Program-made: the position numbers and the translations under genes | Part shown: one piece after another, positions 9,263-11,070 of the stretch | How the letters are laid out: each line of letters starts with the position of its first letter | Numbering within the stretch: the stretch's first letter is position 1 | Sequence record: NC_054902.1 | Length of the DNA: 64,000 nt | Direction: 5' to 3' (one strand) | Source: Enterobacteria phage Aplg8 | The notes under the pieces: model-generated | What the model was told of the DNA's origin: nothing | The model's database searches: none | The model's input: the letters and a program-made list of their open reading frames with translations, nothing else

Positions 9263-9281
<19 letters not shown>

Positions 9282-9751
9282 TCGGTGATAAAATTATTTA
9301 AATTTTGAGTATATTTCTTTTCATCAAAAATCTTTTGCTGCCTACGTAAACGCCATGGCATTTCAATGAACACGCACCATATTCCTGATAGTACTGCTGC
9401 TGTAAAAATATTAACAAGTATAATTAAAAGAATCCAATCTTCCGTTCTGCCTACTGGACTTTCTCCAAAGAAGCAAAATACAAATGATGTCACAGGAAAA
9501 CTAATAATATACCACAGAATCATAATCTTATCTGTGAACCAATCAGTGTTCGTTAATTTAGCGCGACCATTATGAATACACACGAATTTATCATCTGTTG
9601 CAGTAGATGGCTTAACTGGTTGATATCCCATTCTAAACTCCCTAATCAGCAAATTTTTCATATCTTCGGAACAGCCATTCCAGTCAACTCTATCAACTGA
9701 AATGCCATCATCCCCATCATCTAAATCATACCAGCGAGTTTTTAAAATCAT
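9263..9751 (-). CDS. small membrane protein, paralog family member (162 aa)
   Basis: Two hydrophobic helices; C-terminal [11 protein letters not shown] motif shared with neighbours. Confidence 0.65.
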
Positions 9752-10122
9752 TTGATTTTCCTACAATCATTCACGAATTCTTTCATTGATTCATTTTCAA
9801 TATAAGACATGTAGTTATTATATTCTTTTAATTGTATTTTGTAATCCTTTTTTCTTTGCCAATTTATTTTAAAATTATCATAATGAAAATATAAAATAAT
9901 ACCAAAGAATGAAAATAATGAAATCGCTATAGTATAATGAAGTTCACTCCAAACTTCTATTATATCTACTATACCGCTGACATTACTGCGGATGTTTAAA
10001 ATAATACAGTCAATCATTAATCCAATAAGACTACCAGCAAGAGCTGCAGCCAACGCCACAGCAAAAATTAAAAATGACTCAGAAAAAGAATATTTGACTT
10101 TATTTAGTTTTGGCTTTTGCAT
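9748..10122 (-). CDS. small membrane protein, paralog family member (124 aa)
   Basis: Two hydrophobic helices; C-terminal MKEFVNDCRKIK. Confidence 0.65.
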   Translation of the reverse strand: MQKPKLNKVKYSFSESFLIFAVALAAALAGSLIGLMIDCIILNIRSNVSGIVDIIEVWSELHYTIAISLFSFFGIILYFHYDNFKINWQRKKDYKIQLKEYNNYMSYIENESMKEFVNDCRKIK

Positions 10123-10517
10123 CGTGATTCCTTAACAAATTTCATAATTTCGTTAAATTCATGCATATCTAATTTAAGCTGGTGTTCCTTTTTAATCTTT
10201 TTACACTGAGCTTTCCATTCACGTACACGTTTACGATAATGCCTTCCTTGATACCAATATCCTACCCAATTTACAGGTACCAATAAAAATGGAACTACTA
10301 ATGGAAGAATTAATACTAACAAAAATATTACGCCAGATTCAATATCAGTCATAAAGTCTATAACCATTCCAACAACCAATAGAATTACAAATGATATAGC
10401 TGTCACAGGACCTATTAATACATCAGTAGGAATTAGCTGACGCTTTAGTTCATACTTCACAGGTTTACTTGGAAGGTATAGTGATGGCTTTGACATATTC
10501 TCTACATTCCTTAACAA
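10104..10517 (-). CDS. small membrane protein, paralog family member (137 aa)
   Basis: Two hydrophobic helices; C-terminal MKFVKESRCK. Confidence 0.65.
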   Translation of the reverse strand: MLRNVENMSKPSLYLPSKPVKYELKRQLIPTDVLIGPVTAISFVILLVVGMVIDFMTDIESGVIFLLVLILPLVVPFLLVPVNWVGYWYQGRHYRKRVREWKAQCKKIKKEHQLKLDMHEFNEIMKFVKESRCKSQN

Positions 10518-11070
10518 ATTTTTCTAATAATAAATCGCTTTCAAAATTAGGATTTTCCACGAATTTATCAAAAAGATCATCAACGATAGTTAAGATATTC
10601 TTTTTATTAAGAATACGCTTATTTTCATATTTTGTTTCAGAGTCAACTATAAGAGTAAAGAAATATTTCTTTCCCTGAAATTTTACCGTAGTATCAATAT
10701 AGAACAAATTTGACTTTTGTAAATTACGTTTAAACCATGCGTCACTTAAACTGTAAACGCCAAGATAATCATAATCGTCATTTAAATAACAAACTGTCCA
10801 TTCAGGAGAAATGAAATCAGTAAATTCAACATCAAAATCACACGTCAATGAATGAATTGATTCAATACTTTTAATGAGTATTCCAGGACGTATTAAAGAC
10901 TTTTTACCTTTATAAAATCCAGAAAGACTTTCATCAGTTTCGTATGAAGACCCCCAATAGTAATTACGTCCTTCTGCCATACGTTTAAGAGCATTTAGTA
11001 ATTGATCTGGAACATCAACCTGTCTTTGGAACTCTTCAAACATTGAATTGAAATCACTTTGCATTTTCAT
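10465..11070 (-). CDS. hypothetical protein (201 aa) sharing the C-terminal motif
   Basis: C-terminal EKFVKECREYVK resembles the three downstream membrane proteins. Confidence 0.6.
   Translation of the reverse strand: MKMQSDFNSMFEEFQRQVDVPDQLLNALKRMAEGRNYYWGSSYETDESLSGFYKGKKSLIRPGILIKSIESIHSLTCDFDVEFTDFISPEWTVCYLNDDYDYLGVYSLSDAWFKRNLQKSNLFYIDTTVKFQGKKYFFTLIVDSETKYENKRILNKKNILTIVDDLFDKFVENPNFESDLLLEKFVKECREYVKAITIPSK

Follow-up and report, generated by a model that had tools for sequence, protein, structure and literature searches.

A PspA/Vipp1-like gene and a run of genes sharing a C-terminal tag in the e.6–nudE region of T4-like phages

In the Psp system of Escherichia coli the gene for a PspA-family coiled-coil protein lies beside those for small inner-membrane proteins with cytoplasmic tails, and the cytoplasmic C-terminal domain of PspC is the PspA-binding element. 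The MIM helices of ESCRT-III in eukaryotes and archaea, a membrane-remodelling machinery of the superfamily to which PspA belongs, offer a lead only: a short C-terminal amphipathic helix is common to different subunits and docks MIT domains. Recruitment of PspA-family proteins to the membrane is controlled by small membrane partners (PspB and PspC in the case of PspA), and in Bacillus the small polytopic membrane protein LiaI brings the PspA homologue LiaH to sites of membrane damage (both reviewed in PMC7619361); the LiaI-LiaF-TM domain is a unit of four transmembrane (TM) segments (PMC11237479). The present analysis concerns a 64 kb stretch of DNA from Enterobacteria phage Aplg8 (NC_054902.1; the whole stretch is called the window below), in which e.6, a divergent PspA/Vipp1 homologue, stands directly upstream of four minus-strand genes, e.5, e.4, e.3 and e.2, whose products end in a common short motif.

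The window belongs to a Tequatrovirus; over the region of these genes, Shigella phage Sf22 and phage Kha5h are 98–99% identical to it. The four genes are orthologues of T4 e.2, e.3, e.4 and e.5, the names being taken from annotated relatives; e.6 lies upstream of them, and nudE followed by the lysozyme gene e lies downstream. All four reading frames and the C-terminal strings quoted in a preliminary description of this DNA were recovered exactly. The genes are listed in the order of transcription.

11112..11705, minus strand: e.6, the proposed hub, in all cases directly upstream of the motif-bearing genes
10465..11070, minus strand: e.5, 201 amino acids (aa), ending EKFVKECREYVKAITIPSK; soluble motif carrier, first gene after e.6
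10104..10496, minus strand: e.4, 130 aa, ending MKFVKESRCKSQN; predicted two-TM hairpin with a basic tail and the motif FVKESR
9748..10122, minus strand: e.3, 124 aa, ending MKEFVNDCRKIK; predicted two-TM hairpin protein
9263..9751, minus strand: e.2, 162 aa; 75 aa acidic N-terminal domain, predicted two-TM hairpin and motif tail

The true start of e.4 is the ATG at 10496 (MSKPS); the TTG at 10517 in the list of open reading frames (ORFs) is a mechanical call. Overlaps amount to 32 nucleotides (nt) for e.5/e.4, 19 nt for e.4/e.3 and 4 nt each for e.3/e.2 and e.2/nudE, and the 41 nt e.6/e.5 spacer is the sole non-overlapping junction of the e.6–nudE block.

The phage block resembles E. coli Psp in its gene arrangement, with a PspA-family coiled-coil gene beside genes for small inner-membrane proteins with cytoplasmic tails. 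It differs from Psp in that the membrane proteins have two TM segments and no PspB or PspC match, that there is no PspF-like regulator, that the C-terminal FIxxCR tag, present on soluble proteins as well, has no counterpart there, and that the interaction is putative. With LiaI–LiaH it shares the adjacency of a small membrane protein gene and a PspA homologue gene, whereas the LiaI-LiaF-TM domain has four TM segments, there is no homology to e.2–e.4, and neither multiple interchangeable anchors nor a common C-terminal tag is present. The likeness to MIM and MIT is also partial: MIM is part of the ESCRT-III subunits and its binding partner is Vps4, whereas the phage tag is carried by the neighbours of the ESCRT-III-like e.6, and no MIT-like protein was identified.

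In T4-like phages a conserved block consists of a PspA/Vipp1-type e.6 followed by three to six genes that end in a helix-compatible [LIV]-E-x-F-[IV]-x-x-C-R-(basic/G). The AF2 model of e.6 is a helical hairpin (residues 2–80/86–145) with a predicted local distance difference test score (pLDDT) above 90 over residues 30–130, and has the long α1–α2/3 helical hairpin core typical of PspA/IM30/Vipp1. When this model was searched with Foldseek, the top 14 PDB matches were all Vipp1, PspA or ESCRT-III (best E = 3.5e-4). Comparison of the e.6 family profile with PDB sequences gave Vipp1 or PspA as the top eight matches, at E = 7.8e-5 to 2e-3 and collinear over residues 1–140. The e.6 of the window itself did not match Pfam PF04012. 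Two distant members of its family, P0225 (39.0 bits) and P0219 (35.1 bits), passed the gathering score of that entry (33.9 bits), with three more below it; they were tied to e.6 at E = 1.7e-7 and 6.1e-10 in a search of 1.8 billion proteins. Membership of e.6 in the PF04012 family is therefore transitive, since only its homologues pass the cutoff. Taken together, e.6 is a divergent PspA/Vipp1 (ESCRT-III superfamily) homologue that is annotated everywhere as hypothetical, and no prior report of a phage-encoded PspA was found in the searchable literature. The preliminary description had missed this gene, although it is the most informative context and lies immediately upstream.

The four proteins of the window terminate in F[IV]x[ED][CS]R, encoded as follows.

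10501..10518, minus strand: motif codons FVKECR of e.5
10122..10139, minus strand: motif codons FVKESR of e.4, the last six e.4 codons being dual-coded with the e.3 N-terminus
9760..9777, minus strand: motif codons FVNDCR of e.3
9275..9292, minus strand: motif codons FITECR of e.2

A strict pattern, F[IV]x[ED]C[RK], was matched three times among the 119 561 residues of a six-frame translation of the window (0.26 expected), at the C-termini of e.2, e.3 and e.5 and nowhere else; a loosened pattern gave five matches, four of them at e.2–e.5 (e.4 being added). No real gene ending in the motif was found in a further 100 kb of the genome of Sf22, the nearest relative. For a wider survey, e.6-anchored loci were taken from seven divergence tiers of T4-like phages, which yielded 1066 six-frame ORFs including 315 wrong-strand decoys. 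Strict F[IV]xxCR was present within the last 24 residues of 79 of the 751 same-strand ORFs and in no ORF elsewhere, and none of the 315 wrong-strand ORFs ended in it. The shared C-terminal motif of the preliminary description is thus real.

The aligned motif reads [LIV](−3) E(−2) x F(0) [IV](1) x x C(4) R(5), with K, G or E after it; the hydrophobic positions form an i, i+3, i+4, i+7 stripe and the Cys-Arg pair is nearly invariant. Besides the hairpin proteins, its carriers include no fewer than seven soluble bodies (92–273 aa) that cannot be aligned with one another; for this reason the motif is a portable protein module, confined strictly to the C-terminus, and not merely the end of one gene family. 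A CaaX-like lipidation box was rejected, as the residues after the Cys range in number from one to about 16; the T4 clamp-binding and FtsZ-tail motifs were rejected because their sequence patterns do not match. Further downstream in other genera, small soluble proteins of 92–109 aa also end in the tag (FLEYCR, FIKQCR, FIKYCR, FIAKCR), and one of them directly precedes the lysozyme gene.

L005 5211–5540; L042 7348–7647; L045 7165–7452; L050 7345–7653: extra tag-ending soluble proteins

The first gene after e.6 was a soluble motif carrier in 27 of 29 loci, the two exceptions being frameshifted copies, and each locus had three to six carriers within 4.5 kb. The most distant relatives of e.6 include two lineages with only 25% identity in e.6 and with different flanks (uvsX/gp41 upstream, ligase downstream). 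In these two lineages the PspA_IM30 gene is immediately followed by genes that end in ...ILANAR.., ..IVHRAR.., ..IIARAK.. and ..IIKHAR.., a related I-[ILV]-x-x-A-R form with Ala for Cys that is bridged to the Cys form by FIESAR in locus L049.

These observations lead to the reading that we favour, if tentatively: the tag may dock its carriers to a shared hub, for which e.6 is the likeliest candidate, in a phage-encoded membrane-maintenance module. The tag would act as a docking helix that gathers all carriers on one partner, probably the e.6 polymer. The hairpin proteins would be membrane anchors or sensors, as PspB and PspC are for PspA and LiaI is for LiaH, and a soluble carrier such as e.5 would serve in the cytoplasm as adaptor or regulator. 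In the infected cell the module would stabilize or remodel the inner membrane of the host, with the fast-changing TM hairpins tuning where or when this membrane action happens. The comparison is worded as 'works like' and not 'member of', because the carriers match none of the PspB, PspC or LiaI families. A wider proposal, possible but doubtful, is that T4-like phages carry a self-contained modular ESCRT-III/Psp-type membrane-remodelling system, in which an e.6 polymer would use interchangeable adaptors with one C-terminal tag (FIxxCR, or in distant lineages IIxxAR), and the fast-diversifying hairpins and the swappable soluble bodies would set the trigger for recruitment (membrane insult, host defence or infection stage).

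Several points weigh against docking to e.6. The contact between motif and e.6 is one that we infer. Helical amphipathicity was significant in the e.2 and e.3 tails only, e.4 has no conserved Cys at the motif position (FVKESR), and the single-sequence model of e.5 has a pLDDT of 41, with the motif inside a terminal helix at low confidence. Carriers e.2–e.4 gave noise only at E ≤ 1 against the PspB, PspC and LiaI models of Pfam and NCBIfam. The close loci were all fetched with e.6 as the anchor, and the co-occurrence of e.6 and carriers in related genera may reflect shared ancestry. In the distant phages the Ala form was found in five of 17 adjacent downstream genes, against one among the remaining genes of those contigs (about 51), by a relaxed pattern that was defined post hoc, after the sequences had been seen; it was absent beside two of the five distant e.6 relatives (L065 and L067). 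The linkage in the distant phages can be called supportive, not decisive. Knockdowns of e.2–e.6 in T4 were scored 'Not Fit', i.e. without fitness effect in the laboratory host; this screen is uninformative here because the essential gene e received the same call.

The alternative that survives best, although we regard it as somewhat unlikely, is that the tag has nothing to do with e.6 and serves as a signal for self-association or targeting, which would build a hetero-oligomeric bundle (perhaps with a Cys core or metal) or bind a host factor (a protease, chaperone, or division or membrane protein), the adjacency of e.6 being inherited gene order. The hydrophobic stripe and the nearly invariant Cys-Arg would suit such a signal, the overlapping and probably translationally coupled genes suggest stoichiometric co-production, and both the putative nature of the e.6 contact and the ascertainment of co-occurrence through e.6 leave room for it. 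It is opposed by the retention of the PspA-like gene and the motif genes side by side where the flanks differ, and by the near-constant position of a carrier as the first gene after e.6.

The topology of the membrane proteins was derived from Kyte–Doolittle hydropathy profiles and the positive-inside rule. Hydrophobic helices were found at residues 76–92 and 107–123 of e.2, 17–33 and 63–79 of e.3, and 26–42 and 56–72 of e.4, and none was found in e.5. In e.2 and e.4 the two helices are joined by a short acidic loop with at most one Lys or Arg; the loop of e.3 is longer (about 30 residues, part of them weakly hydrophobic) and was not cleanly scored. The C-terminal tails are strongly basic (nine Lys and Arg in e.2, 15 in e.4 and about 9–10 in e.3) and the N-termini are basic too. 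Hydropathy and charge place e.2, e.3 and e.4 as probable N-in/C-in hairpins with a cytoplasmic motif, and the three two-helix membrane proteins with basic juxtamembrane tails that had been described for this array are confirmed in the hydropathy profiles.

Ratios of nonsynonymous to synonymous substitution rates (dN/dS) were calculated by the pooled Nei–Gojobori method from 5–8 tequatrovirus genomes. The hairpins gave 0.77 in e.4, 0.62 in e.2 and 0.39 in e.3, whereas the tails gave 0.05–0.14 and e.6, e.5, nudE and e gave 0.03–0.12. In no hairpin did the ratio exceed 1. The values correspond to relaxed or mildly diversifying selection and leave positive selection, and with it the arms race suggested in the preliminary description, unproven.

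That the membrane proteins are independent superinfection-exclusion, defence-evasion or host-takeover factors in such an arms race, with the tail as the conserved part of duplicates, is unlikely. The contrast between hairpins and tails fits this explanation, as do the variation in hairpin gene number (one to four per genome), the loop indels and a wholesale-replaced TM1/loop variant of e.4 (see below), the dispensability of e.2, and the filing of its family, PHROG 2203, under 'moron/host takeover'. Relaxed constraint explains the dN/dS values of at most 1 equally well, as TM helices tolerate hydrophobic swaps; moreover, the motif is also found on unrelated soluble bodies, which are no duplicates of hairpin genes, and an invariant Cys-Arg tail is left unexplained. 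Nothing similar to Imm or Sp, or to a defence or anti-defence model, was found: the Imm and Sp PHROGs and the PADLOC models gave no match for e.2–e.5, the only PADLOC hit being noise at 0.025. Imm and Sp resemble these proteins in that they are small, are made early by T4, reside in the membrane or periplasm and can be dispensed with in the laboratory, but they are encoded elsewhere (Sf22 gp217 and gp209), belong to other PHROGs, and have neither a FIxxCR tail nor a tandem array.

The four genes had been described as paralogues. This was examined by iterative hidden Markov model (HMM) searches and by hhalign with ortholog-only profiles from three genera. Starting from e.4, the iterative HMM recruited the e.3 of the window in round 2 (E = 1.3e-5), and starting from e.3 it recruited e.4 in round 2 (E = 3.3e-7); e.2 joined later, at 8.8e-4 and 2e-5. 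At no point was e.5 recruited, and it formed a converged family of its own without e.2–e.4. None of the 315 decoys was included. By hhalign, e.3 and e.4 aligned over 42 collinear columns (E = 2.9e-5, probability 73%) that cover the entire cytoplasmic tail; a weak remainder (E about 0.005) was left when the motif had been trimmed. The pairs e.3–e.2 and e.5–e.3 aligned over the 12–15-column motif only (E = 1e-4 and 2e-4) and over nothing after trimming, and e.4–e.2 gave no alignment with the three-genus profiles. With shallow same-genus profiles only the gene ends aligned. Pairwise Smith–Waterman z-scores of the proteins were suggestive for e.3–e.4 only; significant DNA–DNA matches among the four genes were discarded as mostly physical gene overlaps.

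A common N-terminal MxKPxL..VKY is also present in e.3 and e.4, and their start regions are each other's best match among the 119 start regions of the window. A microhomology of 10+9 nt between e.2 and e.4 at TM1 was marginal (8/200 shuffles). On these sequence comparisons e.3 and e.4 are probably tandem duplicates. The architecture of e.2 is that of the e.3 and e.4 hairpin proteins, and its homology to them is unproven; e.5 shares the tag only and stands outside the e.3/e.4 hairpin superfamily, having no TM helix, no recruitment and a match confined to the 15-column motif. The claim of four paralogues therefore probably holds for e.3 and e.4, which are linked through intermediates and align beyond the motif along the whole tail, and is not demonstrable for e.2 and e.5, which share a motif of 12–15 residues and align nowhere once it is trimmed.

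The tails are repeated at the DNA level too.

10506..10521, minus strand: exact 16 nt repeat AAATTTGTTAAGGAAT, copy 1, in the e.5 tail upstream of the e.4 start
10127..10142, minus strand: exact 16 nt repeat AAATTTGTTAAGGAAT, copy 2, in the e.4 tail upstream of the e.3 start
9748..9765, minus strand: junction repeat TGTAGGAAAATCAAATGA, in the e.3 tail with the Shine–Dalgarno (SD) sequence and start of e.2; site of the crossover of the T2 e.2 deletion
9263..9280, minus strand: junction repeat TGCAGGAAATTAAAATGA, in the e.2 tail with the SD sequence and start of nudE

In T2, which is without e.2, the e.3/nudE junction is in frame and matches the tail of e.3 on the left side of TGCAGGAAA and that of e.2 on its right side. 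Some gapriverviruses (L016) are without e.4 through a clean 360 nt in-frame deletion with its crossover in the e.5/e.4 tail repeat. Repeated tail DNA is thus a substrate for unequal recombination, by which whole genes are lost in frame with their neighbours intact, the neighbours being spared because each tail also holds the translation start of the next gene; gene gain presumably follows from the reverse event. Genomes have one to four hairpin genes and three to six carriers in total, and the proposal that the array expands and contracts is borne out by this range and by the losses in T2 and L016. Absent in T2 and frameshifted in T4, e.2 is a dispensable cassette. In the reference T4 sequence it is a frameshifted remnant of 102 aa, with hairpin and tail readable in another frame (L003 2511–2998). 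Phage UFV05 (protein P0142) has a natural in-frame e.4::e.2 fusion at a common PVT..SFV microhomology, with e.3 deleted. In some e.4 orthologues (P0131 and P0133–P0135) TM1 and the loop are swapped wholesale (VEIIPVIMFTISTIIGFIILEHNKNASRE...) with both cytoplasmic ends identical, which suggests mosaic recombination inside the hairpin.

Linkers at gene boundaries and mobile regulatory cassettes mediate modular shuffling in lambdoid and T4-type phages. The junction repeats are like these in being short crossover sites of clean gene loss and unlike them in lying inside coding sequence and being foremost a protein motif: between genera the peptide is kept and the DNA is not. The codons of the motif vary across relatives (Phe TTT/TTC; Ile/Val ATT/ATC/ATA/GTT/GTG/GTA; Cys TGT/TGC; Arg AGA/AGG/CGT/CGC/CGG/CGA). 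In several genes of relatives the motif ends 22–82 nt before the next start, and one copy precedes an intergenic spacer of roughly 30 nt. Over the last 14 codons in tequatroviruses, dN/dS was 0.05 at a dS of 0.25 in e.2 and 0.11 at a dS of 0.52 in e.3. The motif is held at the amino-acid level, because codons and start distances vary and tail dN/dS is low. That it is a nucleic-acid feature without protein-level function, a by-product of the next SD sequence and start or recombination linker DNA, is very unlikely and already largely refuted: every motif of the window does overlap the SD sequence and start codon of the next gene, the exact 16 nt repeat and the pair of similar 18 nt junction repeats do contain the deletion crossovers, and dS is depressed, albeit only in the truly dual-coded 32 and 19 nt overlaps at the ends of e.5 and e.4, but residues are kept through codon changes as large as AGR for CGN, spacing and tail dN/dS in e.2 and e.3 are as just given, and none of the overlapping junctions elsewhere among the approximately 80 genes of the window yields the motif. 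The by-product explanation, which the preliminary description had named as fatal to its own claim, accordingly fails.

Around the block, a GGGGC-UUCG-GCCCC tetraloop hairpin was located by a terminator-like scan and by sequence within the e.6/e.5 spacer (11091..11106, minus strand). C(UUCG)G hairpins are known from T4, and on that basis this one may stabilize or terminate transcripts. The 37 nt nudE/lysozyme e spacer (8789–8825, minus strand) holds two TATAAATA boxes and a strong GGAGG, which is consistent with the known late promoters of gene e. A σ70 promoter scan found 27 sites against 20 expected and is uninformative for T4.

A second tandem array is present in Mosigvirus, Gaprivervirus and other genera. 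It consists of 3–5 small soluble proteins of 60–105 aa, each of which terminates in G-x-W-V-S-S-S-x-x-C with TAAGGAA..ATG next in the DNA, and is another paralogue family with a C-terminal motif; none was found in this window.

L002 3569–4363; L005 3691–4716; also L020, L021 and L025: WVSSS-type array, downstream of the motif genes

In databases the genes are kept apart. PHROGs splits e.2–e.5 into four families (e.3 matched phrog_2330 at 9.7e-62 and e.4 phrog_2604 at 1.4e-70, and e.2 falls in PHROG 2203), and Pfam has two separate entries, by precomputed assignment PF26873 on e.4 homologues and PF26896 for e.2; the local Pfam copy gave no PF26873 match for e.4. Searches of e.2–e.5 against Pfam, NCBIfam, PADLOC and PDB sequences gave nothing usable. 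In public records orthologues of e.3, e.4 and e.5 are labelled 'sulfurtransferase', 'DNA primase', 'putative phosphoserine phosphatase', 'host specificity protein' or 'site-specific RNA endonuclease'. The labels look like propagated mis-annotations, as the family searches made here back none of them. Literature searches by gene name turned up e.2–e.6 in supplementary tables only; listed for decades as conserved hypothetical, although T4 is the best studied of phages, they are still so in functional-genomics tables of 2025.

Whatever its function, the 6–9-residue C-terminal tag unites proteins that four PHROGs and two Pfam entries keep apart, and a coding repeat that doubles as the next translation start lets whole genes be lost, and presumably gained, in frame. 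If the docking reading is correct, e.2–e.6 acquire a testable role: the phage would come equipped with a PspA/Vipp1-type machine of its own for membrane maintenance, complete with tagged adaptors, which would bear on how T4 keeps the inner membrane energized during DNA injection and lysis inhibition and in the face of abortive-infection defences that target the membrane. Should the wider ESCRT-III/Psp-type proposal hold, the block would be, as far as we could find, the first PspA system encoded by a phage, and the tag would be a new docking code for the superfamily.

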